This document shows, piece by piece, positions 1,516-32,000 of a stretch of 32,000 nt of DNA; position 1 is the stretch's first letter; every line of letters begins with the position of its first letter. Made by a program: the position numbers and the translations under genes. The DNA is from Mycolicibacterium smegmatis (GTDB lineage Bacteria; Actinomycetota; Actinomycetes; Mycobacteriales; Mycobacteriaceae), in NCBI RefSeq assembly GCF_001457595.1, contig NZ_LN831039.1:1-32000 (forward strand), given 5' to 3'. A model generated the notes under the pieces. It ran no database searches, was not told the origin of the DNA, and saw only the letters and a program-made list of their open reading frames with translations.

Positions 1516-1534
1516 GCTCGGAAACTCAGCCCAC

Positions 1535-1567: not shown

Positions 1568-1619
1568 CGTCTACGGACCCGTTCCGACCCGGTTTCGATG
1601 ACGCCTGACCGAAATTTTT

Positions 1620-1895: not shown

Positions 1896-2109
1896 CCCTG
1901 GGGAGATCGGGATCGTTCGCCTCGAGAGACGTCCCCGGTCATCCGCATGTCGGCCCGATCGATTAGCTTTCAAGTTGGTGCGGAAAGCTCTACGGTGTTT
2001 CATCGACGGCGGTTCTGTGAGCGTGTCATTCGGTGTGCCACCGATGGTGCTTTCGAGGAACCTGCTGCTTAGAGCTCATTGCGGGGATTATCGAAGGGGC
2101 GCATAGGAC

Positions 2110-3303: not shown

Positions 3304-3331
3304 CCGGCCACGCCGGAGGGGAAGGGCGCGT

Positions 3332-4225: not shown

Positions 4226-4234
4226 GCAGATGGC

Positions 4235-5970: not shown

Positions 5971-6084
5971 GGCGCGTCACACCTCCTGCCAGGTCGCGCT
6001 CAGAGCCGCCACAGGCCTTGCAAGGGTGCGCTGAAGCGTCCTCACGCTCGGATGGCCGAGAAATTACGCACACGGCGCAACTAG

Positions 6085-8229
<2,145 letters not shown>

Positions 8230-8258
8230 CCCGCGATCCGACAATCGAGGATTGATTC

Positions 8259-10787
<2,529 letters not shown>

Positions 10788-10839
10788 TGGAAACGCTGAG
10801 GTCCCCGAAAGGTCCTCGGCCCGAGCTAAGGAGCTGTAG

Positions 10840-12000: not shown

Positions 12001-12019
12001 GTTGGTTAGGTTACCCTCA
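12001..12019. promoter_or_regulatory. Candidate IdeR/DtxR iron box upstream of the SIP-importer operon
   Basis: GTTGGTTAGGTTACCCTCA matches the IdeR consensus TTAGGTTAGGCTAACCTAA at 14 of 19 positions (hand alignment). It contains a TANNNT hexamer (TAGGTT, 12007-12012) and ends 5 nt before the GTG of the first iron gene. Confidence 0.55.
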
Positions 12020-12024
12020 GCTGT

Positions 12025-12825
12025 GTGAGCTTCTCGTATGCGTCCGTCATCGAGACCAAGGCGCTCAACCCCCGGATGGTCCGGATCACCCTTCAGGTCG
12101 AGGACCCCGCTTCCCTCGACGTGCAGCAGGCCGCCGACTCGGCAGTCGCGGTCTTCATGCCCGGCACCGACGAGGGCCGCAACTACTCCGTACGCCGCCA
12201 GCGCGGCGATCTGCTCGACCTCGACGTGGTGCTGCACGCCCGCGGTGTGGGGACCGACTGGGCGGCGCGAACCCGGCCCGGTGACCGCGTCGGCCTCGAC
12301 CACGCACGCTCGTGGTACCGCCCGGACCCGGCCGCGCAGTGGCAGCTGTTGATCACCGACCTGTCCGGGCTGCCGGCCACCGCGCGCATCCTCGAAGAGT
12401 TGTCTCCGGAAGTCCCCGTGACGGTGATCGCCGAGGTCGCCGAAGCGCAGGATCTCGACTACCTGCCGGCGCATCCGCAGGCGCGGTTGGTCACGTCGAT
12501 CGGGACGGGTAACGGCAACGCGCCGAGCGAACTGGCCACGCTGGTGCGTGAGCTGGCCCTGCCGCGGGATCGCGGCTACTGCTGGTTCGCGGGTGAAGCC
12601 GCAGAGTCGCGCGCGGTCAGGAAGTATCTCAGGGGGCTGGGGTACCAGAACGAACAACTCGACATCACGGGTTACTGGAGGTTCGACTCCGAGACCTGGG
12701 ATGCCGCATTCGCTCTGGTGGAATCGGATGTGTTGGCGGTGTACGAGCGTGCACTCGCCGAAGGCAAGGGGGACAAAGTGGCTTTCGAGGAGTTCGACGA
12801 GGCCTGCGAGCGAATCGGTCTGTGA
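12025..12825 (+). CDS. Siderophore-interacting protein (SIP/ViuB-type FAD-binding ferric-siderophore reductase)
   Basis: This is a 266-aa ORF. The N-terminal beta-barrel text is VIETKALNPRMVRITLQV, the FAD motif RNYSVR is present, and the C-terminal NAD(P)-binding part is CWFAGEAAESRAVRKYLR. Confidence 0.88.
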   Translation: MSFSYASVIETKALNPRMVRITLQVEDPASLDVQQAADSAVAVFMPGTDEGRNYSVRRQRGDLLDLDVVLHARGVGTDWAARTRPGDRVGLDHARSWYRPDPAAQWQLLITDLSGLPATARILEELSPEVPVTVIAEVAEAQDLDYLPAHPQARLVTSIGTGNGNAPSELATLVRELALPRDRGYCWFAGEAAESRAVRKYLRGLGYQNEQLDITGYWRFDSETWDAAFALVESDVLAVYERALAEGKGDKVAFEEFDEACERIGL

Positions 12826-12828
12826 TAG

Positions 12829-13860
12829 GTGATCACGCAGGCACCGCTCGCACCGCCGCGCGCCGCGCGTAACCACCGGGCTGTCGGACTGGCCGTCGCG
12901 ACAGTCGTTCTGGTCGCGATGTGCATCGCGAGCCTCGCGATCGGCACGCAGAACGTCTCGTTGTCCACGGTCTGGCAGGCCGTCACCGACTACCGCGACA
13001 TCGGCGACCAGTGGATCGTCCACGACCTGCGGATCCCGCGTACGGTGCTGGGTCTGCTGGTCGGCCTGGCCCTCGGACTCTCGGGCACCCTGATCCAGGC
13101 CGTGGGACGTAACCCGCTCGCCGATTCCGAGATCCTCGGCATCAACTCGGGTGCGGCGCTGTTCGTCGTCGCGGCCATCGCGTTCCTCGGGTTCAGCGGA
13201 ATCTGGACGTACATCGGATTCGCTTTTCTCGGAGCGCTTTTCGCGATGCTCATGGTGTACCTGATCGGCATGACCGGACGGGCCACCGTCACACCGGTCC
13301 GCGTGCTGCTCGCGGGGGTGGCGATCGGTGCCGTGATGGACGGTTTCGGATTCGTCATCAGACTGCAGAATCCGCGGGCGTTCGACAACATGCGCTTCTG
13401 GGATGCCGGCGCGCTCGACGGGAGACCGCTTGAGGTGGCCGGCGCGATCGCACCGTTCATCGCGGTCGGCGCCGTGTTGTGCCTCGTGGTGTCGCGCTCG
13501 CTGAACATCACCGCGCTTGGCGACGATCTTGCGAAGAGCATGGGCAGCAACGTCGTTCGTACCCAGGTGCTCAGCCTGACGGCGGTGACGCTGCTGGCCG
13601 GTGCGGCGACGGCAGGCGCCGGGCCGATCGGCTTCGTCGGCTTGATGGTGCCGCACGCGGTGCGGCGGTTCACCGGCCCGGACTGGCGGTGGGTCCTGGC
13701 GTACGCGACGGTGGTCGCGCCCAGTCTGATGCTGGCCGCCGACATCGTCGGCCGGGTCGTCATCCGGCCGTCGGAACTGCCCGCGGGCATCGTCACTGCT
13801 TTTCTCGGCGCCCCCGTACTCATCTGGCTCATCAGGCGTTCGAAGGCGGACCGCGCATGA
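12829..13860 (+). CDS. FecCD-family iron-siderophore ABC importer permease (FepD-like; fxu cluster)
   Basis: This is a 343-aa polytopic ORF. It carries typical FecCD motifs (LRIPRTVLGLLVGLALGLSGTLIQAV.RNPLADSEILGINSGAAL and GPIGFVGLMVPH). The start lies 4 nt after the SIP stop. Confidence 0.92.
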   Translation: MITQAPLAPPRAARNHRAVGLAVATVVLVAMCIASLAIGTQNVSLSTVWQAVTDYRDIGDQWIVHDLRIPRTVLGLLVGLALGLSGTLIQAVGRNPLADSEILGINSGAALFVVAAIAFLGFSGIWTYIGFAFLGALFAMLMVYLIGMTGRATVTPVRVLLAGVAIGAVMDGFGFVIRLQNPRAFDNMRFWDAGALDGRPLEVAGAIAPFIAVGAVLCLVVSRSLNITALGDDLAKSMGSNVVRTQVLSLTAVTLLAGAATAGAGPIGFVGLMVPHAVRRFTGPDWRWVLAYATVVAPSLMLAADIVGRVVIRPSELPAGIVTAFLGAPVLIWLIRRSKADRA

Positions 13861-14915
13861 CCGTCATCGATTTCGGGAAGCGCCAGTGCGTGGTTCGCGT
13901 CGGCAGCGCGTCGGCGCGCATGTCGTGGCGTGCGGTGATCGCGGTCGTCGCACTGCTGGTGGGTGCCTTCGTGGCCGCGGTTCTGGCGATCGGGATCGGC
14001 AAGTACCCCATCACACCTGTCGACGTGCTGCGTGTGCTGGTCGGCACGAACACCACGTTCGACCGTGTGGTGGTGCTCGAGTGGCGCATGCCGCGCATGC
14101 TCATGGCGCTGCTGATCGGTGCGGCGCTCGGGGTTTCCGGTGCGATCTTCCAGGCGCTGACGCGAAACCCGTTGGGCAGTCCGGACATCATCGGTGTGAA
14201 CGCCGGGGCCTACACCGGAGCGCTCGTCGCGCTGGCGGGGCTGGGGACCGGAGGGCAACACGGCGGGTACTACGCCGTGGCGGGCGGCGCGCTGGTCGGT
14301 GGGTTGATCACCGCCGCTGCGGTGTACGCACTGTCGTACCGCAACGGACTGGCCGGTTACCGCCTCATCGTGGTCGGCATCGGCGTGGGCGCCGTACTGA
14401 GTTCGGTCAACCAGTGGATCGTCATCAAGCTCGATCACCACACCGCGGTCACGGCCTCGGTGTGGCAGCAGGGCACCCTCAACGGCCTCACCTGGTCCCA
14501 GGTCGTCCCGATGACGGTGTGTCTTGCCGTCGTGACGGTCGCACTGCTCGCGATGGGCCCGCAGTTACCCGTTCTGCAGATGGGTGACGACGCGGCAGGT
14601 GGGCTCGGCGTCAACCCGGAACGGGTCCGCCTGTCCTATCTGGTCGCCGGCGTCGCGCTCGTGGCGTTGGCCTGCGCGGCGGCCGGGCCGATCTCCTTCG
14701 TGGCGCTGGCCGCCCCGCAACTGGCACGGCGACTCACCGCGAGTCCCGGCGTCGCACTGGTCCCCGCGGCCGCGATGGGCGCCGTGCTGCTGCTCGCGAG
14801 CGACCTCGTGGCCCAGCATCTGTTCACGGCCAACGAACTACCGGTGGGCGCGGTCACCGTATCGCTGGGCGGGATCTACCTGGTATATCTCCTTGTCACA
14901 CAGGCACGTCGGTGA
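13857..14915 (+). CDS. FecCD-family iron-siderophore ABC importer permease (FepG-like; fxu cluster)
   Basis: The ATG at 13857 overlaps the upstream stop (ATGA) and gives 352 aa. Motifs are WRMPRMLMALLIGAALGVSGAIFQALTRNPLGSPDIIGVNAGA and GPISFVALAAPQ. The upstream part of track ORF 13479..14915 overlaps the previous permease and is Arg-rich. Confidence 0.9.
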   Translation: MTVIDFGKRQCVVRVGSASARMSWRAVIAVVALLVGAFVAAVLAIGIGKYPITPVDVLRVLVGTNTTFDRVVVLEWRMPRMLMALLIGAALGVSGAIFQALTRNPLGSPDIIGVNAGAYTGALVALAGLGTGGQHGGYYAVAGGALVGGLITAAAVYALSYRNGLAGYRLIVVGIGVGAVLSSVNQWIVIKLDHHTAVTASVWQQGTLNGLTWSQVVPMTVCLAVVTVALLAMGPQLPVLQMGDDAAGGLGVNPERVRLSYLVAGVALVALACAAAGPISFVALAAPQLARRLTASPGVALVPAAAMGAVLLLASDLVAQHLFTANELPVGAVTVSLGGIYLVYLLVTQARR

Positions 14916-15754
14916 AAGAACATATGACTCACACGCCAGAGAACGCGGTGCCCGACCGGTTGGGGGCCGTCGACGTCTCGATCGGGTACGACGACCGGAC
15001 CATCATCGACGGTCTGACGGTCCAGGTGCCTGCCGATCGGGTGACCGCGATAGTGGGGCCCAACGCGTGCGGAAAGTCCACACTGTTGCGGGGTTTCGCC
15101 CGGTTGCTCACACCGTCGGCCGGGCGGGTGATCCTCGATGGGCACGACATCGCGACCATGCACACCAAGGACGTGGCGCGCCGACTCGGGTTGCTGCCGC
15201 AGACCTCGATCGCGCCCGAGGGTATCACGGTGGCAGATCTGGTGTCGCGTGGCCGTTTTCCACATCAGAAGGTGTTCCGGCAGTGGTCACGTGACGACGC
15301 GGCCGCGGTCGCCGACGCCATGCGGCACACCGGTGTCACCGAACTGTCGGCACGACTGGTCGACGAACTGTCGGGCGGGCAACGCCAGCGCGTCTGGGTC
15401 GCAATGGTTCTCGCGCAGCAGACGCCCCTGATCCTGCTCGACGAGCCCACCACCTATCTGGACATCGCGCACCAGGTGGAACTGCTCGACCTGTTCGCGA
15501 TGCTCAACCGCGAGCACGGCCGCACCGTGGTGGCGGTGCTGCACGATCTCAACCAGGCCTGCCGCTACGCCGACGAGTTGATCGTCATGAAGGCGGGCCG
15601 CATCGTGGCCCAGGGCGATCCCGACGTCGTGATGTCGGCCGATCTGGTGCGCGACGTCTACGGGCTGGAATGCCAGATCATCGACGACCCGCAGACCGGG
15701 ACACCCCTGATCGTGCCGCGGGCGTCGCGGCACGCGCGGGTGGTCAAACGGTAG
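14912..15754 (+). CDS. Iron-siderophore ABC importer ATP-binding protein (FepC-like; fxu cluster)
   Basis: Walker A is GPNACGKSTLLRG, the signature is [12 protein letters not shown], Walker B is ILLDEPTTYLD and the H-loop is VLHDLN. The GTG at 14912 overlaps the permease stop (GTGA). An in-frame ATG at 14924 is an alternative start. Confidence 0.93.
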   Translation: MKEHMTHTPENAVPDRLGAVDVSIGYDDRTIIDGLTVQVPADRVTAIVGPNACGKSTLLRGFARLLTPSAGRVILDGHDIATMHTKDVARRLGLLPQTSIAPEGITVADLVSRGRFPHQKVFRQWSRDDAAAVADAMRHTGVTELSARLVDELSGGQRQRVWVAMVLAQQTPLILLDEPTTYLDIAHQVELLDLFAMLNREHGRTVVAVLHDLNQACRYADELIVMKAGRIVAQGDPDVVMSADLVRDVYGLECQIIDDPQTGTPLIVPRASRHARVVKR

Positions 15755-16703
15755 CGAATTCCGGTGTGGCGGTCAGGTATCCGCCACCGTGCCCGAAGTA
15801 GTCGAGTGCCGAGTGGTCGATGCCGTCGTCGGTGCGCACCACGTCGAGAACCAGACCCGGTGACCTGCCGCGGAACGCGTCGGCGCCCGCGACGATCACC
15901 ATGCCGCCGTTCTCTTCGATGAACACGCGTCCTGGCGTGCCACCGTAGGTGCATCTCGAGACGTGGGCAGAGATCAGGCGTAGCCGTTCGCCGCGAAAAT
16001 ACGTGTACGCATTGGGATAGGGGTCCGAGAGCGCCCGAATGAACCGCTCGATGTCGGCCGCGGGCCAGGACCAGTCCACCAAACTGTCGCGAGCGGACCG
16101 CTTGTGGAAAAACGTTCGTTGTGAGAGATCCTGCGGAACCGGCGTCGCGGTGCCGTTCTCGATGGCGTCGAGAGCGTCCTCGAGCACATCCGGAATCAGG
16201 TCGAGCGTGTCGTACACCAGGCTGGTGCCGGTGCTGGTCGGGGTGATCTCGACGGACCGCTGCAGCAGGATGTCGCCGGTGTCGAGTTCGTCGTCCATGA
16301 AATGCGCCGTGAGCCCGGTCTGTCCGGCACCGCTGATCAACGACCAGATCACCGGCGAGAAACCGGTGAACTTCGGCAGCAGCGAATCATGCAAATTGAC
16401 GGTGCCGTACTTGGGAATCGAGAACAGTTCGCGCGGCAGGCGGGTACGCCAATTGTTCGCGACGCCGACATCCGGTGCGAGTTCCCTGACACGTTGGACG
16501 AGTTCTGGGGTGGGCCGCTTGGCCAGGAGCACCTCGATTCCCGCGCCGCGCGCCAGGTCCTCCACCGAATCCGCCCAAATCGATTCGTACGCATGGTCAC
16601 TCGTCGGATGAGTCACCACCAGGCACACTTCGTGCCGCGATTTCAACAACGCCTGCAGGGTCCGATGGCCCCACGTCTGGTAGCCGAACATGACCACGCG
16701 CAC
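15744..16703 (-). CDS. fxbA: Formyltransferase of exochelin biosynthesis (Fmt/PurN-like N-terminal domain plus Fmt-type C-terminal domain)
   Basis: The N-terminus VRVVMFGYQTWGH and the catalytic motif NLHDSLLPKFTGFSPV (HxSLLP) are present. The start is placed at the GTG at 16703 (319 aa) because this matches formyltransferase N-termini. GTG 16712, GTG 16697 and ATG 16691 are also possible. The longer track ORF (to 16967) would run through the promoter and iron box and into the divergent gene. Confidence 0.85.
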   Translation of the reverse strand: MRVVMFGYQTWGHRTLQALLKSRHEVCLVVTHPTSDHAYESIWADSVEDLARGAGIEVLLAKRPTPELVQRVRELAPDVGVANNWRTRLPRELFSIPKYGTVNLHDSLLPKFTGFSPVIWSLISGAGQTGLTAHFMDDELDTGDILLQRSVEITPTSTGTSLVYDTLDLIPDVLEDALDAIENGTATPVPQDLSQRTFFHKRSARDSLVDWSWPAADIERFIRALSDPYPNAYTYFRGERLRLISAHVSRCTYGGTPGRVFIEENGGMVIVAGADAFRGRSPGLVLDVVRTDDGIDHSALDYFGHGGGYLTATPEFATV

Positions 16704-16754: not shown

Positions 16755-16773
16755 ATTGGTAAGCCTTACCTTT
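16755..16773. promoter_or_regulatory. Candidate IdeR iron box (palindromic core GGTAAG-C-CTTACC) in the fxbA / mbtH-like divergent control region
   Basis: ATTGGTAAGCCTTACCTTT matches 12-13 of 19 positions of TTAGGTTAGGCTAACCTAA, with symmetric substitutions in both half-sites. A TANNNT hexamer (TAGCAT, 16776-16781) follows on the + strand. Confidence 0.5.
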
Positions 16774-16898: not shown

Positions 16899-17135
16899 TT
16901 GTCCACCAATCCTTTTGACGACACCGACGGCCGCTTCGTGGTCCTGGTCAACGACGAGGGCCAACATTCGCTGTGGCCCGTGTTCGCCGGCGTTCCCGCA
17001 GGCTGGACGGTCGCGTTCGGCGGCGCCGGCGGCGCTGATCGTGGCAGTGCCCTGCGCTTTGTCGACGAGAACTGGAACGATCTGCGTCCGCGGTCGCTGC
17101 GCGAAGCCACCGACAATACGGCCACATTGGCGTGA
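16899..17135 (+). CDS. MbtH-like protein (NRPS adenylation-domain chaperone)
   Basis: A TTG at 16899 follows GGGGGAAGGAAA and gives 78 aa. The text is [37 protein letters not shown]....[10 protein letters not shown], with the three invariant Trp positions of the family. The GTG at 16806 would add 31 non-family residues. Confidence 0.85.
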
Positions 17136-18865
17136 GCATGGCCGACACCACGCGAACCGACCTGTCCTGGACCGGGGTTCGCGTACTTCGGCGCACCGTG
17201 AGCCGAAATCTCAAGTGGCTCACGTCCGGTACGACACTCATCGCCCTGCACCAGCTGTGCGAGGTGTCGGTACCGGTTCTGATCGGCATCATCGTCGACC
17301 GCGCGGTCGCGACCGGCAGCGTCGAAGCGATCATTCGCTGGATCGCCGTCCTCGCCGCACTTTTCGTGGTGTTGACCGTGGTCTACCGATTCGGCGCCCG
17401 GCTGCTGATGTTCGCCATCGCGCGGGAATCGCACCTCTTGCGGGTGGAGTCGAGCGCCAAGATCCTCGACCCGCTGGGTATCGAGACCGACTACAAAGTC
17501 GGTGAACTACTGTCGATCTCGTCGGACGACGCCGACGAGGTCTCCTACCTGCTGGACTACGTGCCGCGGATCGTAGGCGCCGTGGTGGGCACCGTGGTGT
17601 GCGGCGCGGTGTTGCTGAGCATCCATCTACCGCTGGGGCTGATGGTCCTGATCGGTGTGCCAGTCGTGGTGTTCGGCCTGCAATTGACGGCTCCGATGAT
17701 CGCGCGCCGGGTCGAGGACCAACAGGCCGAGATCGGCCGCGCGACGGCCCTGGCCACCGACCTCATCAGCGGACAGCGGCCGTTGCAGGGAATCGGCGCG
17801 CAGGCCAACGCGGCCGCGCGCTACCGTGTCGCGAGCCGTCGCGCGCTGACCGCGACGTTGCGTGCCGCGCGCATCCAGAGCATCCACTCGGGCGCTGCGG
17901 CGGCGGCCGGGGCACTCGCCGCGATGGCGGTGGCCGTGGTCGCGGCCTACTTCGCGATCCGCGGTTCGATGACGGTGGGCCAGTTGATCACCGTGATCGG
18001 CCTCGCCCAGTTCCTCATCGAACCGTTCTCGCTGCTGGCGGTCGTGCCGAGTTGGGTCGCCGAGGCCCGGGCGTCGGCCAACCGCGTCGCTCGCGTCCTG
18101 AGCGCCCCGACCCGCCACTCCCCCGTCTTCGCGGCGGACCCCCGCGACGCCGCGGCCCGCCTGTCGGTCCGCAACGCAACACACGCGGGTCTGAAAAACC
18201 TGTCGTTCGACGTCGAGCCAGGCGAATTCGTCGCGGTACTCACGAGCGACGTCCGCGATGCCGGCGCACTCATCGATCTGCTCTCCGGATATCAGCGAGC
18301 CGAGGACAAAGGCACGGTGCTGGTCGGTGGCCGGCGCCTCGACCAGATCCCGCTGAAAGAGCGCCGCGAACACCTGCTCGTCGAACACCACCTCAGCTCG
18401 TTGTTCAGCGGGACGCTGGAAACCAATCTGAATGTCACAGGAACCGATCCGCGGCGCGGACGGGTCTCCGTCGACGACGCACTACAGGCGTCGTGCGCCG
18501 TCGACGTCGTCGACCTGCACCCCGACGGTCTCGCCCATGCCGTCGTGGAGCGCGGTGCGAGCCTGTCCGGAGGACAACGCCAACGCTGGACCCTGGCCCG
18601 TGCGCTGCTGGCCGATCCGGCCGTCCTGGTGCTGCACGATCCGACCACCGCGATCGACACCGTCACCGAGCAGGTCATCGCCGACGGCATACGCCGGCTG
18701 CGCACGCGCGCGGGACGCACAACGGTGGTCCTCACCAGCAGTCCGGCCTTGCTCGCCGCGGCCGACCGGGTGCTGCTCGTCATCGACGGGCGTCTGGACA
18801 GCGAAGGCACACACCGCGATCTGGTCGACGCCCACTCCGACTACCGGGATCTGGTGACCCGATGA
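17132..18865 (+). CDS. exiT: ABC exporter half-transporter (TMD-NBD) with a degenerate nucleotide-binding domain; exochelin export (exiT region)
   Basis: This is a 577-aa ORF with an N-terminal six-helix type exporter TMD. The C-terminal NBD has an intact LSGGQRQR signature but no Walker A lysine ([21 protein letters not shown]). Walker B is VLVLHDPT (no catalytic Glu) and there is no H-loop His. The GTG overlaps the mbtH-like stop; an ATG at 17138 is an alternative start. Confidence 0.88.
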
Positions 18866-20631
18866 TCTCCGACGAACCCGTCACGCCTCCGGTTCTGCCG
18901 GTGGCGACCGCCCGACGCTCGGGTGCCTGGCTGATCGCCGATCTGCGTGGTCGGCGCACTGCGCTGGCCGCGGTCGTGACCGTGGGGCTCGCGGCGGCAG
19001 CGGCCTCGGTGGTGCCCATCTATCTGCTCGGCATGCTCGTCGACCGCGTCGAACACGGCGACGGCACACGCGGTCTCGTGGCACTCGGCACGGTGATCGC
19101 GCTGGCTGCCGTCGCGGGTGGCCTGGGCACCGGATTGTCGACCTACCTGACCTCCCGTCTCGGTGAGCAGATGCTCGCCGATCTGCGTGAGCGAGTGCTC
19201 GAGCGCGCACTCAACCTGCCGGCCACGCTCATCGAGGAGAGCGGACGCGGCGACCTGCTGTCTCGGGTCGGTCCGGATGTGGCCGTGGTGGCCCGCACGG
19301 TCGCGCAGGTGTTACCGGTGATCCTCAACGGTTTCTTCCTCGGCGTCGTGACGCTGGTCGGGATGACAACCCTCGACTGGCGCCTGGGTCTCGCGGGCGC
19401 GCTGGCCATCCCGGCCTACATCGCCGGACTGCACTGGTATCTGCCACGATCGGCCCCGATGTACGCCGACGAACGGATCGCGATCGCCAACCGCGCGCAG
19501 GTCACGGTCGAGTCGATCCAGGGTGCGCGGACCATCGACGCCTACGAGATCCACGACCGGCACCTCGCCGACATCGACCGCGCCTCAGGCCGGGCGCGCG
19601 ACATCTCGATCGCGGTGTTCACGTTCTTCACACGTCTGGTGGGCCGCGTCAACCGTGCCGAATTCATCGGCCTGGCCGCCACTTTGGTCGTCGGATTTCT
19701 GCTGGTGCGCTCCGGTGAGACCACCGTCGGCCAGGTCACCGCGGCCGCGCTGATGTTCCACCGGTTGTTCAACCCCGTCGGCGAACTGATGTACAACTTC
19801 GACGAGATCCAGTCGGCATCGGCAAGCCTGGCGCGCCTGGTCGGGGTCATCGACCTGGACGCCCCCGGCCCGGACGCACGGCGAACTGCGCCGGCGAGGC
19901 CCCACGGTGCCGACATCTCCGTCGAGAACGTGTCGTTCGGCTACGGCACGGGACCTGAGGTGCTGCACGGTGTCTCGCTGCACGTACCGGCCGGCACCAG
20001 GTGTGCTCTGGTCGGCACCACAGGCGCGGGCAAGACGACACTCGCCGCGATCGTCGCGGGCCTGCTCACCCCGACGTCGGGACATGCGCGCATCGGTGGC
20101 GTCCCCGTAACCGAGATCGCCGACCTGCGCCGCTGGGTTGCCACGATCACGCAGGAAGTCCACGTCTTCTCCGGGCCGCTCATCGACGACCTGCGGCTCG
20201 TGGCACCGCAGGCCTCCGTCGACGACGTGTGGACCGCGCTGGAGACGGTGGGCGCGAGCACCTGGGTGCGGGCGCTCGACGACGGCCTGGACACGGTCGT
20301 CGGCGAGCACGGCCACGAGTTGACCGCCGCGCAGGCACAACACGTCGCGATGGCCCGCCTGGTGCTCGCCGACCCCGAGGTGGTCGTTCTGGACGAGGCG
20401 ACCGCCGAGGCCGGCAGTGCACACGCCGCCGAACTGGAGGACGCCGCCTCGGCCGCCACCGCGGGCCGGACCACGCTGATCGTCGCACACCGGCTCACGC
20501 AGGCCGCGCAAGCCGATCAGGTCGCCGTCATGGCCGACGGCCGCATCGTCGAAAACGGCACGCACGCAGAGTTGATCGCCCTCGGCGGTCGCTACGCGCG
20601 GCTGTGGCAGGCCTGGATCAGGCACAACTAG
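18862..20631 (+). CDS. exiT: ABC exporter half-transporter (TMD-NBD) with a canonical NBD; partner of the preceding gene (exiT region)
   Basis: The ATG at 18862 overlaps the upstream stop (ATGA) and gives 589 aa. Walker A is GTTGAGKTT, the Q-loop is ITQE, Walker B is VVVLDEAT and the H-loop is IVAHRL. The signature is degenerate (LTAAQAQ). The first 421 codons of track ORF 17599..20631 are an Arg-rich read-through overlapping the previous gene. Confidence 0.9.
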   Translation: MISDEPVTPPVLPVATARRSGAWLIADLRGRRTALAAVVTVGLAAAAASVVPIYLLGMLVDRVEHGDGTRGLVALGTVIALAAVAGGLGTGLSTYLTSRLGEQMLADLRERVLERALNLPATLIEESGRGDLLSRVGPDVAVVARTVAQVLPVILNGFFLGVVTLVGMTTLDWRLGLAGALAIPAYIAGLHWYLPRSAPMYADERIAIANRAQVTVESIQGARTIDAYEIHDRHLADIDRASGRARDISIAVFTFFTRLVGRVNRAEFIGLAATLVVGFLLVRSGETTVGQVTAAALMFHRLFNPVGELMYNFDEIQSASASLARLVGVIDLDAPGPDARRTAPARPHGADISVENVSFGYGTGPEVLHGVSLHVPAGTRCALVGTTGAGKTTLAAIVAGLLTPTSGHARIGGVPVTEIADLRRWVATITQEVHVFSGPLIDDLRLVAPQASVDDVWTALETVGASTWVRALDDGLDTVVGEHGHELTAAQAQHVAMARLVLADPEVVVLDEATAEAGSAHAAELEDAASAATAGRTTLIVAHRLTQAAQADQVAVMADGRIVENGTHAELIALGGRYARLWQAWIRHN

Positions 20632-20664
20632 ACATCACGAGAAGCACATGGAGGACGCTCGCAC

Positions 20665-23600
20665 GTGACCGCGGATTCGCTGGACATCGCAGAGCTTCTG
20701 GAGCTGTGGAACAACCACTCCACGCCGGAGCACACATCGACCGTCCCGACGCTGTTCGCCGCCCAGTGCGCGCTGACGCCGGACGAGGTGGCCGTGGTCG
20801 ACGGCGAACGGCGGCTCACCTACCGCCACCTCGAGACCCACGTCGCGCAACTCGCGCACGCCGTGCGCGTCGCGGCCGGGGAGGGCCCCGAACCGATCGT
20901 GGCGATCGGTGTCCCGCGGTCGGCCGAGATGGTCGTGTGCGTGCTCGCCGCGATGATGGCCGGTGTCGCGTTCGTACCCCTCGATCCCTCGTGGCCCGCG
21001 CACCGACGCCGCCAGGTCCTCGCCGACTCCGGCGCGGTCGCGACGTTCATCACCCGCGAAGACGAATCCGATTGGGGCGTGCCGGGATTGCGGGTCGACC
21101 TCGGCGCCTGGCAGTTCACGGCCGAGTCGCCCGTGTTGCCGCAGGCCGACGTGCATCCGGCCCAACTGGCGTACGTGATCTTCACCTCGGGCTCGACGGG
21201 CAAGCCCAAGGGCGCGATGATCCGCCACGACGCGATCGCCGAGCGGTTGCAGTGGCAGCGCGATCACATCCTGCACTTCGGCAAGCACGACCACACCGAC
21301 GCGTCACTGTTCAAGGCGCCCTTGTCCTTCGACATTTCGGTCAACGAGATCCTGTTGCCGCTCGTCAGTGGCGGACGCGTGGTGGTCGCGGTCCCCGACG
21401 GCGAGAAGGATCCCGAGTACCTGCTCGAGCTGATCCGCACCGAACAGGTGACGTTCGTGTACCTGGTGTCGTCCATGCTCGACACGTTGCTCGAGCTCGA
21501 CCGGCTCGCGACCGCCGACGGCGCGCCGAGCTCACTGGCGTCGCTGCGCCATGTGTGGTGCGGCGGTGAGGTTCTCACACCCGGTCTGTTCGCGCGGTTC
21601 CGCAAACAGCTGACCACGACGCTTTACCACGGCTACGGCCCGGCCGAGGCCACCATCGGCGTCTCGCACGTGATCTACCGCGACACCGCAGAACGCATCG
21701 CGACCTCGATCGGCCGCCCCAATCCGCACACGCAGCTCTACGTGCTCGACGAGTACCTGCAGCCCGTGCCACCCGGCGTCGGTGGTGAACTGTACGCAGC
21801 CGGATTCCTGCTGGGCCGTGGCTACGTCAACGCACCGTCACTGACCGCGTCCCGCTTCGTCGCGAACCCGTTCGACGGCAACGGATCCCGCATGTACCGC
21901 ACAGGCGATCTGGCGCGGTGGACCGAGGACGGCAGCCTGGAATTCCTGGGTCGCGCCGACAACCAGGTCAAGATCGGTGGCAGGCGCGTCGAACTCGAGG
22001 AGATCGAGTCGCAACTGGCCGACCACCCCGCCGTGCGGCACGCGGTCGTGGACGTGCACCGCCAGGGCGGTGCGGATGTGCTGGTGGGCTACCTGGTGGC
22101 CGCCGACGGCGTGCGCAACGACGCGGCGTGGCACGCGGAGGTCGCCGACTGGGCACGCACCCGCCTGCCGGAGTACATGGTGCCCAAGGCCTTCGTGGCC
22201 CTCGAGCGGGTTCCTCTGACCGCCAACGGCAAAACCGACCGACGGGCGCTTCCCGCGCCAGATCTCGAGCGCAGCGGCACCGTCAAGCCGCCCCGCACAC
22301 CGCGCGAGACCGTGCTGTGCCAGGTCTTCGCCGACGCGCTCGACATCGACGCGGTCGGCGTCGACGAGGACTTCTTCGCCCTCGGTGGCGACAGCATCGT
22401 CGCGATCCGCGTCGTGAGCCGGCTGCGCGCCGCGGGCTACACCCTGCGACCGCGCGACATGTTCGCCCACCGCACGGTCGAGGCACTGGCGCCCCTGCTC
22501 GGCGACTCCGATGTCCGGGACACCGGTCCGGCCGTCGACCCCACCGGCGCTGCCACACCCACGCCCATCCTGCGGTGGCTCGACGAGGTCGGCACCGCGG
22601 GATCCGTGCTGAACGGATTCCACCAGGGCATGTCGCTCGTGACACCGGCCGATGCCGACGAGAACACACTGCGCGCGGCGATCGCGGCCACCGTGCGGCG
22701 CCACCACGTTCTGTGGGCTCCGCCCGGACGCACCGCGTCGGACATCGACATCCCCGGTACGCCGCCCGAGACCCGGCTGCTGATCGCCGATGCTTCCGAC
22801 GGAATCCCTGCGCAGGCCGAAAAGGTTGCACGGCAACTGGTGTCCCTGCTCGACACCGCCAGGATCGCATTCGGCTGGATCCGGCGCCCGGCCGCGCCCG
22901 GCCGTCTCGTGGTGATCGCCGACCACACCGTGATCGACGGCGTCTCGCTGCGGATTCTCGCCGAGGACATCGCCACCGCCTACGGGCTGATCGCAGAAGG
23001 CCGGGCCGTCGAACTGCCCACGCCGCACACCTCGTGGCGGGCCTGGGCACAGCGCCTCGCCGATACCGCGGCCGCCGGTGGATTCGACGCCGATCTCGAG
23101 CACTGGCAGCAGGTGTGCGCGACAACCGAGACGCCGTGGGGCGACCGGGCATTGGACCCCGCGATCGATACCGTCGCCACCGAATCCCGGCTGACCGTCG
23201 AGCTGCCGTCCGCGGTCACCGACGCGATCCTCACCACCGTGCCCGACCGGATCCACGGCCACGTCAACGACGCCCTGGTCGCGGCGCTGTACCTGGCGCT
23301 GCGCCGGTGGCTGCACACGCGCGGCGTGGGTGCCGACACCCTGCTGGTCGAGATGGAAGGCCACGGCCGCGAGGGCCACCTCGTCGACTCGGACACGGCA
23401 GGCCTCGACCTGTCGAACACCGTCGGCTGGTTCACCACGCTGTACCCGGTCGCCCTGCGCGACGCCGAATTCGACTGGCAGGCAGCCGTCTCCGGCGGGC
23501 CTCAGCTGGGTGCGGCGGTGCGCTCGGTCAAGGATCAGCTTCGGTCGGTGCCGTCGCACGGGTTCAGCTACGGTGCACTGCGCTACCTGCGTGACGGCAC

Positions 23601-23925
23601 CAGCGGTCTCGAGGCCGCGCCGCAGGTGCTGTTCAACTACCTGGGCCGCTTCGGCACCGCCGACCGGCCATGGGCTCTCGCGAACGACACCACCGCGGTG
23701 CTCGAGGACCGCGATCCGGGCATGCCGCTGCCGCGTCTGCTCGAGGTCAACGCGGAGGCCGTCACCACCGCTGACGGCTCCGTGCTCCGCGCGACGTTCA
23801 GTTGGCCCGCCCACGCCGTCGCGGAGGTCGACGTGCGCACGCTGGCCGGCATGTGGACGGACCTGCTCACCGCGATCGCCTCGAGCGACGACGTGCGAGG
23901 GCACAGTGCATCGGACTTCGACCGC
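20665..23925 (+). other. NRPS module 1 (approximate bounds): A (20740-22250), T (22291-22500), E (22540-23925); no N-terminal C domain
   Basis: Motifs are listed under the NRPS CDS. The E domain carries [23 protein letters not shown] and FNYLGRF. Confidence 0.75.
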
Positions 23926-26900
23926 GTCAGCGTCACGGCGGACGACGTCGCCGAACTCGAACGCCGCTACCCCGGTCTCACCGACCTCCTGCCGCTCACG
24001 CCGACGCAGCAGGGCATCTATTTCCACTCGACCTTCAGCCGCGACCGCGACCCCTACGTGGTGCAGCAGATCGTCGACATCACCGGCCCGCTGGACACCG
24101 AACGCTTCCAGCGCGCAACCGAATCCGTGGCCGCGCGCCACCGTGCGCTTGGGGCCGTGTTCACGACGCTGTCCGACGGCACCCCGGTCGCGGTGCACGC
24201 CGCGACGGTCGCACCCGACTTCGACGTCCTCGACGCCCGCCACGCCGCCGATCCGTCGACTGTGGTCGCGCAACGTGCCCGGTGGGAGCGTGAGCGCCGC
24301 TTCGACCTGGCCGCCGCGCCGCTGACCCGTTACACGCTGGTCCGCCGCCGCGACGACCTGCACACCATGATCCAGACCGTGCACCACATCGTCGCCGACG
24401 GGTGGTCGGTGCCCATCGTGCTGGACGATCTGCTCACGGCCTACGCAGGTGACGATTTCGACGGTCCCGCACCGGAATTCGCACGCTTTGTCGACTGGCT
24501 CGAGCAGCGCGACACCGACGCCGACCGTGCGGCCTGGGCGCCTGCGCTCGAGGACATCACCGAACCCACGCGCCTGGCCGCCGCTGACGGCGCCCGTGGC
24601 CGTACAACCGGCTCCGGTTTCGGCACCCGCACCGTGACCCTGCAGTCCCGCAGCGCGGTCGCCGACGCCGCCAACGGTGCTGCGGTCACCGTCGGCACCC
24701 TGCTGCACACCGCATGGGGGCTCGCACTGGGGCGGCTCACCGGACGCGACGACGTCGTGTTCGGCACTGTGGTCTCGGGTCGTGGCGCAGATGTGCACGG
24801 CATCGAGTCGATGGTCGGCCTGCTGGTCAACACCGTCCCGGTGCGCGTGGCCTGGAGCGCCGACGACACCGGCGCCGATGTCGCGGGGCGCCTCGCTGCC
24901 GTGGAATCCACGCTGCTCGAACACCATCACCTGCCGCTGACCGAGGCGCACCGCCTCGCGGGGGTCGGCGAACTGTTCGACACGCTCGTCGTGATCGAGA
25001 ACCTCGGCGCGACAACGCATACGCGCGGCGACCTGACATTGGGTGACATCGGCGTGATCGAGGCTCCGCATTACCCGCTGACGCTCATGATCAGCGTGCG
25101 CGACACCATCACGGTGACCGTCACCAACGACCGCGAGCACGTCTCCGACGTGCTGGCCGACACCGCGGTCGCCGCGTTCACCGAGGTGTTGACGGCGCTC
25201 ACAGCCGATCCCGGGGTGTCCCCCGGCGACATCGCGCTGCCCGCACCGCAGGCGACCGCCCCACCGACGCAGGCGCCGCAGACCGTCACAGATCTGATCG
25301 CGGCCGCGATCGCGGAGCACCGCGACGATATCGCCCTGGTGGTCGGCGAGACCGAGTGGACCTACGGCCAACTCGGCGCCCGCGCAGGTGAACTCGCCGC
25401 AGCGCTGGCCGAGGCGGGTGTGCGCCGCGGCGACATCGTGGCGCTCGCGACCGCTCGTTCGGCGGACCTGGTGGCCGCGATCTGGGCGATCATCGCCGCG
25501 GGCGCGGCGTATCTCCCGGTCGACCTCGCCTATCCGCGGACCCGTATCGAGTACATGCTGCGCCATGCGCGCCCCACCGCGGTGATCGCCGACGGTGTGG
25601 GAGCGCACGTGGTGTCCGGGGCCCTGCCTGCGGACACGATCGTCGTCTCGACCACGGCAACACACGCCGCCGTGCCCTTCACGCCGGTGCCGGTGGACGG
25701 CGCCGACGCGGTTTCGGTGCTCTACACCTCGGGTTCAACGGGTGAACCCAAGGCCGTGGTCGGCACACACGCGGCGCTGGCCAACCGCCTCGCGTGGGCG
25801 GTCGAGGCCTGGCCCGCCGCGACGCGCATCGCGAAGAGCTCGCTGTCGTTCATCGACGGCACCACCGAACTGCTCGCCGGTCTCGCGGCAGGCGCGCGCA
25901 CGGTGCTGGCAGGCGATGAGACCGCTCGCGACGGCAGGCGCCTCGCGCAACTCGTGGCCGCGCACGGCGTCGAACAGCTGCTCGCCGTACCGTCACTGGC
26001 CGCGGTGCTCGCCGACGAACGCACCGAAGATGTTGCCGAGCTGAACCGTTGGATCGTCAGCGGTGAGGCCCTGGAGCCTCGGCATCTGCACGCACTGCGG
26101 ACGGCTTGCCCCACCGCCGAGATCGTGAACTCATACGGATCCTCCGAGGTGGCCGGGGATGTGCTCGCCGGTGTGCAGGATGACGCGGGCATCACGCTCG
26201 GCGCGGCCGTGCCGGGGGCAGGCATCCGGATCCTCGACAGCCGGCTGCGGCAGCTTCCCGCCGGGGTGATCGGCGAGATCTACGTCACGGGTGGGCAATT
26301 GGCGCGCGGTTACCTGGGCCGGCCCGGGCAGACCGCGACACGGTTCGTCGCGGCGCCCGGCGGTGAGCGGATGTACCGCACGGGTGACCTCGGCGCGTTG
26401 CTGCCCGACGGTCGCGTCGTGTTCGCGGGCCGCGCCGACGATCAGCTCAAGATCAACGGCCACCGTGTCGAACCCGGCGAGATCGAGAGCGTGCTGGCAC
26501 GGCAACCCGGTGTCCGGGAAGCCGCCGTGATCGGCACGGGAACGCAACTCGCCGCGTTCGTGGTGCTGGAGTCCGACGCCCCCGGCGCCGGTGATCTGCT
26601 CACCGCGGTGAGCGCCGAACTGCCCGGGCACCTGGTCCCGTCGAGCCTGCGACCGGTGGACGCGATCCCGCTGCTGCCCAGTGGCAAACGGGACAACACC
26701 GCGCTGCGATCGCTTCTGGTCCCCGGTGAAAGCACGGACACAGCGCCCACCAACGACGTCCAACGGGCCGTGCTCGATGTGATGACCGGTGTACTGGCCC
26801 GCGACACGCTCGGCGCCGACGACGACTTCTTCGCCGTCGGCGGTGACAGCATCTCGGCGATCCGGGTCACCAGCCGGCTGGCCCGCGCCGGGTACCACAT

Positions 26901-29900
26901 CGCGACCGAAGACGTCTTCCGTGGCCGTACCGCCGCGGGCGTGGCGGCCCTGGTCGACACCGTCGAACCCCTCGCGCACGACGCGGCGATCGAACCGTTC
27001 GGCACCGTGCGGCTGTCGCCGCAGACCATCGATCGGATCCGGGAAAGCGGTCCGGTCGAGGACATCTGGGCCATGTCGCCGCTGCAGCTCGGCGTGTACT
27101 ACCAGAGCACGCTCGCCGACGCGGGCCCGACGTACATCGCGCAGAACGTCTTCGAGTTCGACCGCCGCATCGACGTCGACGCCATGCGGCGAGCATTCAC
27201 CGCGCTGTTGCGCCGTCACCCGCAACTGCGGGCCGGGTTCCGCACCGTCGAGCACGCCGAACCCGAACCGGCCCCCGACGCCACACCCGTCGTGCAGGTC
27301 GTGGTGACCGACCCTCCGTCGGACCTCACGGTCGTCGACCTCACCGACCAGGACGACCCGGCCGCCGCGCAGCACATCGTCGACACCGACCGCACCGCGC
27401 CCTTCGACGTCGCGACGCCCCCGCTGCTACGGCTCACCGTGATCCGGCTACCGGGCGGACGTGACCGGATGCTGTTCACCTATCACTTCCTGCTGTTCGA
27501 CGGCTGGTCGCGCGAACTGGTGCTGCGAGACCTGTTCGCGCTCTACGACTCCGACGCGCAGCACGGCGCGATCGCACCGCACGGCGACCTGGTGGTGCGC
27601 CACCTGCAGTGGCTCGCGACCGACGGCGACCCGCAGGCCTCGGGCGCCACAGACGCATGGCGTGACCTGCTCGCGGGTCTGACCGAGCCGACGCTGGCGA
27701 GCGGCGTGTCACCCGATCACCCCGACGCGCGGCCCGGCACCGAACCCGGCAGGATCGTCGTGAGGGTGCCCGAGGACGTCACCACGCAACTGCACACGTG
27801 CGCCACCGCGCACGGCGCGACGCTCAACTCCGTGGTGACCGCGGCCGTCGCGCTGGTGACCGGCTATCACGCCGGCACCACCGACGTCGTGATCGGGACC
27901 ACCGTCGCCGGGCGCCCCGGCCACCTCGTCGGGATCGACGAGACCATCGGCCTGTTCCTCAACACCGTGCCGGTGCGGGTCGACATGTCCCCCACCCGTT
28001 CGGTCGCGGCCGCGATGGCCTCCATCGGTGAACAACGTGTGGCGATGATGCGGCACGACCACCTGGGCCTGGGCCAGATCCAGCGCGCCGCAGGTGATTC
28101 CGGCAGCGCGCTGTTCGACTCGCTGCTGGTGCTGCAGAACTTCCTCGACGACGACACTTTCACCGACCTCGAATCCCGCCACGGCATCATCGACGTCAAC
28201 TACCACGACACCACGCACTTCCCGCTCACCTGGGTGCTCACCCCGGGCCGCGAACTCGCGATCAAGCTCGAGCACCGCGTGGTCGACGACGCCAGGGCCA
28301 CCGAGATGGTCGAACAGCTCGTCACGGTGCTGCGGACCATCGCCGCGGAACCCGATACCGCCGTGGGCGCGGTCGACCTGATCGGCGCGGACCGGCGTGC
28401 ACAACTGGAGCGCAGGTGGTCGTCGACCGAACGACCGCTCGAGCCGGTCACGATCGCCGAACTCCTCGCGCGGCGTGCCGAACAGAATCCCGACGACGTC
28501 GCGCTGGTGTTCGGCGCGCAGTCGGTGACCTACCGCGAATTCGACGACCGCGTCTCGCAATTCGCGCGCCATCTGCGCGCACGAGGCGCGGCGCCCGAGA
28601 CGTTCGTCGCGCTCGCACTGCCTCGATCGATCGACATGGTGGTCGCGCTGTTCGCGGTGCTGCGCGCAGGTGCGGCCTATCTGCCGCTCGAGCTGGACCT
28701 CCCCATCGACCGCCTCCGCACGATCATCGACGACGCCGAACCCGTGCTGCTCGTCACGACGACCGACCGCACGGAACTGATCGGGCACGCACGAGCCCGT
28801 GGAGCCGATGTCATCGCGCTCGACGACGCGGAAACCGCTGCCACACTCGCCGATACGCCCGCGTACGCGCTGACCGCAGGCGAACTCGGGGCTTTCGCGT
28901 CCGGCAGCACGCGCCTGAACCACCCGGCGTATCTGATCTACACGTCCGGTTCCACGGGACGCCCGAAGGGTGTGCTCACCGGGTACGCGGGCCTGACCAA
29001 CATGTACTTCAACCACCGCGAGGCGATCTTCGCACCCACCGTGGCCCGGGCCGGTTCGGCAGAACAGTTGCGCATCGCCCACACCGTGTCGTTCTCGTTC
29101 GACATGTCGTGGGAAGAGTTGTTCTGGCTGGTCGAAGGACACCAGGTGCATGTGTGCGACGAGGAGTTGCGCCGGGACGCACCGGCACTGGTCGCGTACT
29201 GCCACCGGCACCGCATCGACGTCATCAACGTCACGCCGACGTATGCCCACCACCTGTTCGACGCCGGTCTCCTCGACGACGGCGCCCACACCCCGCCGCT
29301 CGTACTGCTCGGCGGCGAAGCCGTCGGTGACGGCGTGTGGTCGGCGCTGCGCGATCACCCCGACTCGGCCGGATACAACCTGTACGGACCCACCGAGTAC
29401 ACCATCAACGCCCTGGGCGGCGGCACCGACGACAGCGAAACTCCGACTGTCGGACAACCGATCTGGAACACCCGCGGCTACATCCTCGACGCGGCATTGC
29501 GACCCGTGCCCGACGGCGCGGTCGGCGAACTCTACATCGCAGGCACCGGCCTGGCGCGCGGATACCACCGCCGTGCGGGTCTGACCGCGGCCACCATGGT
29601 CGCCGACCCGTATGTGCCCGGTGGGCGCATGTACCGCACCGGGGACCTCGTCCGCCGTCGCCCCGGCAGCGCCGAACTCCTCGACTACCTCGGCCGCGTC
29701 GACGACCAGGTGAAGATCCGCGGCTACCGCGTCGAGCTCGGCGAGATCGAATCCGTCCTCACGACGGCCGACGGCGTCGCACGCTGCGCGGTCGTGGCGC
29801 GCGCGACCGGGGCCAATCCGCCCGTGAAAACCCTCGCGGCCTACGTCATCCCGGACCGGCGGCCTGCCGAGGACGCCGCGTTCATCACGGGACTCCGCGA

Positions 29901-32000
29901 CCACCTGGCGCGCGTGCTGCCGGGTTACATGGTGCCGACGCGCTACGGCATCGTCGACTCGTTGCCGCTGACCATCAACGGCAAACTCGACGTCGCGGCA
30001 CTGCCCGAACCCGTCGCCGCGACCAGTGGCACCGGCCGGACACCGCGCACCGACCGCGAGGCCACCCTGCTCGAGATCGTGGCCTCGGTGCTCGGCATCG
30101 ACGGCATCGGCGTGGACGACGACTTCTTCACCCTCGGCGGTGACAGCATCTCATCGATCTCGGTGTGCGGACGCGCCCGCAAGGCCGGGCTCAACATCAC
30201 GCCGCGAGACGTGTTCCGGCGCCGCACCATTGCCGCGCTCGCGGCAAGTGCCGACACCACGCAGACCCCGGAGTCCGGTCCCGACACCGGGACCGGGGCC
30301 ATCACCGCGACCCCCATGCTCGCCGAGACCGCACAGGCGAACACGCCGCTGACCAACTTCTACCAGGCCATGGTGCTGGCCACGCCGGCCGGGATCACCG
30401 CGCACGAGGTGCAACGCGTGCTGCAGACCGTGGTCGACGCCCACGCGATGCTGCGTGCGCGCCTGGTGACCACCGCGACGGGCTGGACCCTGACCGTTCC
30501 CGATCAGACCGCGGCGATCGGGCTCACCGTCCGGTCGGGTGCGCTGACCAGCGACTGTGTCGAGGCCGAGAAAGCCGCGGCGGCAGCCGAACTCGACCCT
30601 CGGGCGGGCAACATGGTACGCGCGGTGTGGTTCGACGCCCCGGAGGCGAGCGGGCAACTGCTGCTCGTGATCCACCACCTGGTGATCGACGGCGTGTCGT
30701 GGCGCATCCTGTCCGAGGATCTTTCGCGCGCGTGGAACGACCTGGCCGCAGGACGCGACGTGGCGGCCGACGCCGTGCCGACGTCGTTTCACACGTGGGC
30801 GAACGCACTGGCACAGCGCACATTCGACGACGAGCGCGAGTACTGGGCCGATGTGCTGGCCACGCCGGATCCGGATCTGGGCAGCCGCCCGCCGGATCCG
30901 GCGATCGACACCGCGGACACCGTGCGCAGTCACGAGGTCACCCTGCCGTCCGATGTCACCGCGGCCCTGCTGACCTCGGTGCCCGCCGCGATGCACGGCG
31001 GTGTCAACGACGTGCTGCTCACCGGACTGGCGGTGGCGCTGGGACAGTGGCGTGCCGACCGGGGCCACTCACAGAACACCGCCACCGTGATCAGCCTGGA
31101 GCGCCACGGCCGCGAATCCGACCTGGTGGCAGCCGATCTGGACCTTTCACGAACCGTCGGCTGGTTCACCTCCATCTATCCGGTGCGCATCGACCCGGGC
31201 CCCCTCGAATGGGACACAGTGCGGTCGGCAGGCGCGGAACTCGCCGCAGCGGCCAAGGCCGTCAAAGAACAACTGCGCGCGGTACCCAACCGCGGGCTCG
31301 GCTACGGCGTCCTGCGTCACCTCCACGGCGCGCTGGACGGCACCCCGCCGCAGATCCTGTTCAACTACCTCGGCCGCTTCACCGGCGGCAGCGGCAACGA
31401 CTGGCGACCGGTCGCGGGAATCGGCGCGCTCACCGAGGGCGTGGATCCGAGCAACCCGGCCATGCCACTCGAGATCAACGCCCTGGCCGAGGAGCGGCCC
31501 GACGGCACGGTGCTCAGCATGACGCTGGCCTGGCCCGGTGGGCTGCTCGACGCCGACGACGTCGCCGAACTCGGCTCGATGTGGGCCGATGTGCTTGTCG
31601 CGCTGACCCGTTGTGATGCCCTGCGGGGCCACACCCCGTCGGACTTCGGCCTGGTGACCGTCAGCCAGGACGACATCGACGGCTGGGATCGACTCGGCGA
31701 GGTCGAGGAGGTGCTGCCCCTGCTGCCGCTGCAGGAGGGTATGTACTTCCACAGCATGTTCGGGGATCCTGCGACCGACACCTACCGCGTGCAGCAGATC
31801 GCCCAACTGTCCGGCCCGGTGGATCCCGAGGTGCTGCGTACCAGTCTCACCGTCGTGATGCGCCGCCACCAGGCGTTGCGTGCGAGCTTTAACGAACTCA
31901 CCGACGGCCGGGTGGCGCAGGTGATCTGGTCCGACGTCCCGGTTCAGCTCACCGTGGTCGACACGGATGATCTGGAAAGCATTGCCGCAGAGGAGCTCGC
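20665..32000 (+). CDS. fxbB: Non-ribosomal peptide synthetase, 3' end beyond the window (exochelin synthetase, fxbB/fxbC region). Domains seen: A-T-E, C-A-T, C-A-T-E, C...
   Basis: This frame is not in the ORF track. It is the same frame as the preceding gene. The first start after the TAG at 20629-20631 is the GTG at 20665, 9 nt after GGAGGA. Hand translation shows:
- A3 motifs at about 21170 ([16 protein letters not shown]), 25715 ([12 protein letters not shown]) and 28930 ([13 protein letters not shown])
- A8 motifs [40 protein letters not shown] and [20 protein letters not shown]
- carrier GGDS serines at 22393, 26848 and 30145
- HHxxxDG-type motifs at 22921, 24385, 27481 and 30670
- epimerase EGHGRE/ERHGRE at 23356 and 31100
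All of these are in one frame. No frame-1 plus-strand ORF is listed after 20631, so no in-frame stop occurs before base 32000. Confidence 0.93.
23968..26955 (+). other. NRPS module 2 (approximate bounds): C (23968-25230), A (25282-26710), T (26749-26955); no E domain
   Basis: The C domain has [14 protein letters not shown] and HHIVADGWS. The A domain has unusual A4/A5 regions ([17 protein letters not shown]). The T domain has [14 protein letters not shown]. Confidence 0.75.
27040..31650 (+). other. NRPS module 3 (approximate bounds): C (27040-28375), A (28440-29995), T (30043-30250), E (30295-31650)
   Basis: The C domain has [14 protein letters not shown] and [10 protein letters not shown]. 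The A domain has [28 protein letters not shown] and LTINGKLD. The T domain has [14 protein letters not shown]. The E domain has [25 protein letters not shown] and FNYLGRF. Confidence 0.75.
31690..32000 (+). other. Start of NRPS module 4 condensation domain (truncated by the window end)
   Basis: [14 protein letters not shown]...YRVQQI...[10 protein letters not shown] follows an E domain. Its N-terminal motif resembles that of the module 2 C domain, which also follows an E domain. Confidence 0.7.

Follow-up and report, generated by a model that had tools for sequence, protein, structure and literature searches.

The largest gene in the 32,000-nucleotide (nt) stretch of Mycolicibacterium smegmatis DNA analysed here (contig NZ_LN831039.1, positions 1 to 32,000; hereafter the window) is a nonribosomal peptide synthetase (NRPS) gene, which begins at base 20665 of the + strand and runs off the window end. 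We consider it about 95% probable that this frame encodes the first three modules and the start of the fourth of a single-polypeptide exochelin synthetase, i.e., a thiotemplate assembly line. Judged by sequence identity, the frame (20665-32000, +) covers 3778 of the 7523 codons of fxbB/fxbC, the exochelin NRPS gene and orthologue of MSMEG_0019, as its 5′ half. Earlier papers have described the gene, its product and the FxbB/FxbC fusion, i.e., the main finding is correct but known. The original prediction, made from the letters of the window alone, was right in calling the largest gene an NRPS, as supported by AMP-binding, Condensation and PP-binding profile matches in the predicted frame; its identity as the known exochelin synthetase gene went unnoticed there.

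The NRPS frame and its domains

The TAG at 20629-20631 is the preceding in-frame stop, after which the frame of base 20665 stays open over 20632-31998 (3789 codons). GTG 20665 is the earliest start codon in the frame, with a ribosome-binding site, GGAGGA, on the same strand at 20650-20655, 9 nt before it, and not one stop was counted in the 3778 codons from 20665 to 31998, just as had been predicted. With a stop probability of 0.021 per codon from base composition, 3789 open codons would arise by chance with P ~10^-36. However, a long open frame by itself says little at a GC content of 68%, where antisense frames extend to 1298 codons. The true frame is discriminated from its shadows by codon-position GC, an ordinary amino-acid make-up and Pfam matches. 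The GC content at codon positions 1, 2 and 3 is 0.73, 0.50 and 0.87 in the NRPS frame, whereas the shadow frames peak at position 1 or 2, and the amino-acid composition of the NRPS frame is ordinary, whereas that of the decoy frames reaches 26-30% Arg or 14-16% Gly. All of the Pfam NRPS matches, i.e., three AMP-binding (E 9e-236), five Condensation (1.5e-205), three PP-binding and three AMP-binding_C, fall colinearly in this single frame on a single strand, which agrees with the earlier claim for the core motifs, whereas the six longest overlapping open reading frames (ORFs) on both strands gave no Pfam match at E <= 0.01.

Past 20631, the mechanical ORF list is empty for this + strand frame. 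The cause is the one originally proposed, namely that ORFs without a stop in the window go unreported and that this frame runs off the window end. The list offers four decoys, all found where the original prediction had placed them: 21838-25665 (−, 1275 amino acids (aa)), 27709-29904 (−, 731 aa), 21918-23594 (+, 558 aa) and 30165-31616 (+, 483 aa). Their composition is biased, as had been said, being rich in Gly, Arg, Val, Ala and Asp, with 26-30% Arg in both + strand decoys. The rule on edge-open frames hides 35% of the window, in line with the estimate that about a third would be mis-called from the list alone. The “invisible gene” is thus a product of the ORF-listing rule and not of biology, and it carries a caution for annotation: where a list omits frames that are open at the edge, the largest gene disappears and shadow ORFs driven by GC take its place.

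Pfam and NCBIfam scans on eight consecutive pieces of the protein, together with motif scans and conversion to nt coordinates, give the domain order A-T-E / C-A-T / C-A-T-E / C(start), where A, T, C and E are adenylation, carrier, condensation and epimerisation domains; all coordinates that follow are on the + strand. Pocket codes of the A domains were read after aligning them by the A4, A5 and A10 motifs. Module 1 consists of A1 (aa 31-523, 20755-22233), whose code DINYWGGIGK predicts (formyl)hydroxyornithine, T1 (aa 550-609, 22312-22491, with GGDSI) and E1 (about aa 628-1098, 22546-23958, a TIGR01720 match). The lack of a starter C domain suggests that the chain is initiated on module 1. Module 2 consists of C2 (aa 1108-1525, 23986-25239), which carries the canonical HHIVADGWS at aa 1240, A2 (aa 1548-2008, 25306-26688), whose code IDTLISSGDK predicts beta-alanine, and T2 (aa 2035-2097, 26767-26955). 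A2 has no Asp235, and NSYGSSE replaces NxYGPTE.

Module 3 begins with C3 (aa 2132-2581, 27058-28407), in which the motif reads H2274-F2275-LLFDGWS (nt 27484-27510). In terms of the condensation motif HHxxxDG, C2 has the canonical HHIVADG and C3, a full-length Condensation match of 212 bits, has HFLLFDG. It is followed by A3 (aa 2602-3107, 28468-29985), whose code DMENLGLINK is of the hydroxyornithine type, T3 (aa 3134-3194, 30064-30246) and E2 (aa 3231-3673, 30355-31683), a TIGR01720 match with [10 protein letters not shown] at aa 3337. The first 98 residues of C4 (aa 3681-3778, 31705-31998) close the window, which cuts the domain before its HHxxxDG motif. The core motifs of the A domains, TSGSTGxPK (motif A3), YRTGD (A7), GRxDxQxKIxGxRxE (A8) and the A10 Lys, are present (motif positions aa 174/1688/2760, 411/1904/2990 and 429/1922/3010), with TIGR01733 above cutoff, and the three carrier domains show GGDSI with the phosphopantetheine-attachment residues Ser577, Ser2062 and Ser3161.

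Identity and proposed assembly line

Over 21.8 kb, the window matches GCA_039889265.1 (JBDQEF010000003.1) at 100% identity, and four other assemblies match it at 99.0-99.98%. For the neighbouring proteins, there are M. smegmatis entries of identical sequence, and the second of the two ATP-binding cassette (ABC) proteins encoded upstream of the NRPS is found at exact identity in many assemblies with the gene order conserved. Gene callers on the identical public assemblies place the NRPS start at this GTG, too, and give one gene of 7523 aa.

Two separate deposits are named FxbB, O87313 (2569 aa) and O85019 (1639 aa), which would suit the 1998 description of fxbB and fxbC as two genes with a true boundary inside this region. 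The window protein is 98.3% identical to O87313 over aa 1-2526 (the match extends to residue 2526-2529) and 99.4% identical to O85019 over aa 1-1568. Beyond the matching part, both deposits end in Arg/Pro/Ser-rich tails, which another + frame of the window encodes letter for letter (28289-28378 and 25493-25582, respectively). Since the tails translate from another + frame, and at two different places, the old fxbB/fxbC boundary reflects frameshifts in the 1998 sequences and does not belong to the DNA of the window. FxbB and FxbC are encoded as one ORF in genome annotations (PMC5550956), and the window frame contains no stop anywhere. A complete M. smegmatis genome, CP089215.1, does carry the gene as 2522 + 5000 aa. 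However, this split results from a single change, G to A at window position 28233 (Trp2523, TGG to TGA), which lies within C3 rather than at a domain boundary. We therefore give the two-gene description next to no credence. Either an exochelin-null allele, natural or from the laboratory, or an error in sequencing could underlie the stop in CP089215.1.

Orthologues from five other mycobacterial genomes, at 59-69% identity, were used to follow the assembly line beyond the window, and the rest of module 4 and modules 5 and 6 were read only from these. All are single frames of more than 6300 aa apart from that of M. litorale F4, in whose complete genome (CP019882.1) the NRPS is broken into at least four frames, by sequencing-error frameshifts or pseudogenisation. 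With the active-site pair of each C domain in brackets, the orthologue modules read A-T-E with code DINYWGGIGK (module 1), C(HH)-A-T with IDT[VL]ISSGDK, or VDT… in one orthologue (module 2), C(HF)-A-T-E with DMENLGLINK (module 3), C(HH)-A-T-E with DFWN[IV]GMVHK (module 4), C(HF)-A-T with DMENLGLINK (module 5) and C(HH..DE)-A… with DTWDTGLVD- (module 6). The codes of the first five read (formyl)hydroxyornithine, beta-alanine, hydroxyornithine, threonine and hydroxyornithine, and E domains are present in modules 1, 3 and 4. Exochelin MS, in the structure of Sharman and colleagues from 1995, reportedly consists of D-formylhydroxyornithine, beta-alanine, D-hydroxyornithine, D-allo-threonine and L-hydroxyornithine. 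Modules 1-5 are colinear with this structure in both residue order and E-domain placement, and the codes of A1, A2 and A3 in the window fit its D-formylhydroxyornithine, beta-alanine and D-hydroxyornithine. DINYWGGIGK and DMENLGLINK are also the codes of modules 1 and 3 of the coelichelin synthetase CchH. The A3 assignment has support in published work: A3 of the window is the first A domain of FxbC, which has been described as activating hydroxyornithine with Glu239 (PMC4786211), and in module 3 of CchH, too, the third code position is a Glu (PMC10522769).

Taken together with the colinearity to the exochelin MS structure, the pocket codes suggest the following sequence of events. A1 would activate N5-hydroxy- or N5-formyl-N5-hydroxy-L-ornithine and load it onto T1, where E1 would invert the bound ornithine derivative to the D form. 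A2 would load beta-alanine on T2, and C2 would form the amide bond between the module-1 residue and beta-alanine. After A3 has loaded N5-hydroxyornithine on T3, C3 may couple the side-chain N(OH) of this ornithine to the beta-alanyl carbonyl, forming an in-chain hydroxamate rather than a peptide bond. E2 would then invert the module-3 residue to D, and C4 would hand the chain to the threonine module encoded past the window end.

Several points weigh against this reading. Only half of the gene lies in the window; the substrates are predicted, with codes of the coelichelin synthetase and for beta-alanine as reference; C3, which has no catalytic second His, could alternatively be an impaired domain. 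In addition, the orthologues and the 7523-aa length imply six modules, whereas exochelin MS is a pentapeptide.

The last of these points raises the possibility that the product differs from the pentapeptide, e.g., that it is a hexapeptide precursor, since the full protein would have six modules. The 24 Pfam entries listed for the 7523-aa gene fit six sets of A, A_C, T and C matches. A sixth module is found beyond the window span in the orthologues (in one of them at aa ~6460-7153) and in one representative NRPS, and it comprises a C domain with HHIATDEWS, an A domain with code DTWDTGLVD(K), and a T domain followed by a possible thioesterase motif. The published pentapeptide leaves this module unexplained. 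However, modules 1-5 suffice for the order, identity and stereochemistry of the exochelin MS residues, and the sixth module is known from relatives rather than from M. smegmatis sequence, so that we regard a different product as unlikely.

The non-canonical active sites in two of the five C/E-type domains (DH in E1 and HF in C3 in place of HH) might also be taken as signs of a decaying or inactive NRPS remnant. A dead E1 was considered and rejected, as its DHTVIDG loses the first His only and the catalytic second His is kept; the full motif, DHTVIDGVS, lies at window positions 22921-22947 (aa 753-761), and all orthologues have HH there. The HF motif is kept in the orthologues at 59-69% identity and recurs in C5, which argues that it is under selection. 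Moreover, the 11.3 kb are free of stops with a GC3 of 0.87, and M. smegmatis is the classical exochelin producer, whose exochelin locus reacts to iron-related conditions and is important for low-iron growth or biofilm formation (PMC2170428, PMC8371482, PMC6684656). Against these facts, a remnant is highly improbable, and a working exochelin synthetase remains the preferred reading.

The C3 active site and a possible hydroxamate-forming subtype

In a HMMER alignment with the closest solved structure, a PvdL C domain (E 1.8e-46), Phe2275 of C3 stands opposite the catalytic second His. The His-to-Phe change is kept in C3 of all five orthologues and recurs in their C5. Within one protein, C3 and C5 are 47% identical to each other, whereas their identity to the HH-type C domains is about 29%. 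Among relatives of C3 elsewhere, H-F or H-L is found in Pseudonocardia benzenivorans (one case) and in several other records, whereas a more distant Streptomyces relative has HH. The matches to C3 as sole query in a first protein search were all fragments, and none was an M. smegmatis protein. The 26 non-mycobacterial loci which were also inspected, mostly from Streptomyces, proved to hold unrelated NRPSs with other pocket codes and were of no use for the hydroxamate idea.

A survey of C3 against 1.84 billion representative proteins was then evaluated over the best 150 matches, from which 566 C-type active sites were read together with the code of the next A domain. In this set, which was picked by similarity to C3, a DMENLGLI-type code comes next in 22 of the 24 readable cases with an H-[F/L/V/M] C domain, whereas it follows an HH C domain in 2 of 465 (Fisher p about 1e-33, a test which ignores the shared descent of C-A units). 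One of the two H-[F/L/V/M] exceptions shares the first six code residues and is probably a mis-extracted code, and both HH exceptions sit in the last module of their proteins. The survey also contains a second non-canonical C class in three proteins, with H-Q for H-H, mostly before DVEE[IL]GV-type A codes.

The three ornithines of exochelin MS are reportedly joined via delta-N(OH) and alpha-CO (Sharman and colleagues, 1995). With this linkage, the beta-alanyl-Orn2 and allo-threonyl-Orn3 links would be hydroxamates, and they would fall at exactly the bonds made by C3 and C5, whereas C2 and C4, both HH, would make the two amide bonds. A link from the previous carbonyl to the delta-N(OH) of hydroxyornithine has been proposed as an NRPS C-domain product for qinichelin, with no mention of a motif change (10.1101/163170), and our literature search, limited to one library, found no paper describing an H-hydrophobic C-domain motif. 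Chemically, the hydroxylamine nitrogen would be largely unprotonated at neutral pH, so the His could be dispensable, and a hydrophobic residue at the second-His position may disfavour binding of the alpha-amine.

We therefore put forward, only tentatively and as a possibility which we hold to be more doubtful than not, that C3 and its paralogue C5 represent an unnamed C-domain subtype, H-[F/L/V]-x-x-x-D-G-W-S, which would acylate the side-chain N-hydroxy nitrogen of hydroxyornithine to give in-chain hydroxamates. The association of the motif with hydroxyornithine may be new. If the proposal is true, one could tell from sequence alone, by this motif combined with a DMENLGLINK A domain, whether hydroxyornithine in a siderophore is linked through delta-N(OH) or the alpha-amine. 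Structures of peptide siderophores could then be predicted better, and the proposal would also be relevant to how far C domains depend on the second His with a low-pKa hydroxylamine as nucleophile. Of all the points considered here, only the C3/C5 motif association and the unexplained sixth module might repay more work.

Genomic context and comparison with known systems

The published exochelin locus comprises MSMEG_0011-0019, and its gene numbering and map match the window (PMC2170428, PMC8371482). In the window, this siderophore locus directly adjoins origin-proximal core genes (1-11619), i.e., dnaA (cut at the window start), dnaN, a 6-phosphogluconate-dehydrogenase-like gene, recF, dciA, gyrB, gyrA and a DUF3566 gene. 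Genes for tRNA-Ile and tRNA-Ala lie between the DUF3566 gene and the gene for a siderophore-interacting reductase (SIP; 12025-12825). The latter and the genes for two FecCD permeases and an ABC ATPase (fxu uptake genes) together occupy 12025-15754 (+) and are followed by fxbA (15744-16703, −), a formyltransferase of 319 aa as called in the identical assemblies, and by an mbtH-like gene of 78 aa (16899-17135, +). Two ABC permease/ATPase genes (17138-20631, +), at 17138-18865 and 18862-20631, overlap by ATGA at 18862-18865, and the gap from the second of them to the NRPS is 33 nt. In the 1998 ‘ExiT’ deposit (AAC32046.1, 1122 aa), these overlapping ABC genes are fused into one, and the deposit falls in the same protein cluster as those of the window.

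An mbtH-exiT-exiT-NRPS operon with mbtH as the first gene is likely, and the NRPS would be co-transcribed with mbtH-exiT under IdeR control. Two overlapping IdeR-box-like 19-mers, with 5 mismatches each to the consensus, lie directly upstream of the SIP gene (12001-12024), and a weak site with 6 mismatches lies in the divergent intergenic region of fxbA and mbtH (16755-16773). The pair at 12001-12024 is consistent with the iron boxes drawn in PMC2170428. In another M. smegmatis strain, a 515-aa DDE transposase is inserted between the DUF3566 and SIP genes, in place of the two tRNA genes and the IdeR-box region of the window. A 424-bp contig carries a 141-aa fragment of the M. smegmatis ABC transporter encoded here, deposited as ‘hypothetical protein, partial [Escherichia coli]’, probably through contamination of that assembly.

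The closest known system is FxbB/FxbC of M. smegmatis mc2 155 (MSMEG_0019), which shares the locus, gene order, start codon and domain order; over the in-frame parts of the deposits, the proteins are 98-99% identical. The strain is different, with 18 substitutions over 2253 aa against an mc2 155-like fragment, and the protein is broken in two by frameshifts in the old deposits, whereas it is one frame here. The C domain of PvdL (PDB 9lcp and related) aligns with C3 over its full length, with DxW and other core motifs in register; however, PvdL has N-H-H-I-L-I-D-A-W where C3 has Y-H-F-L-L-F-D-G-W. For the qinichelin synthetase QchJ of Streptomyces sp. MBT76, the proposed chemistry is the same as that suggested for C3, whereas qinichelin itself is a catecholate-hydroxamate hexapeptide from another organism, and no active-site motif was reported.

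The coelichelin synthetase CchH of Streptomyces coelicolor is likewise an NRPS for a hydroxamate siderophore which starts with A-T-E. It has modules for formylhydroxyornithine, threonine and hydroxyornithine, and its cluster contains a formyltransferase, as is the case here. While similar in these respects, CchH differs from the exochelin synthetase in that it has three modules, uses them partly iteratively, and has no module for beta-alanine.

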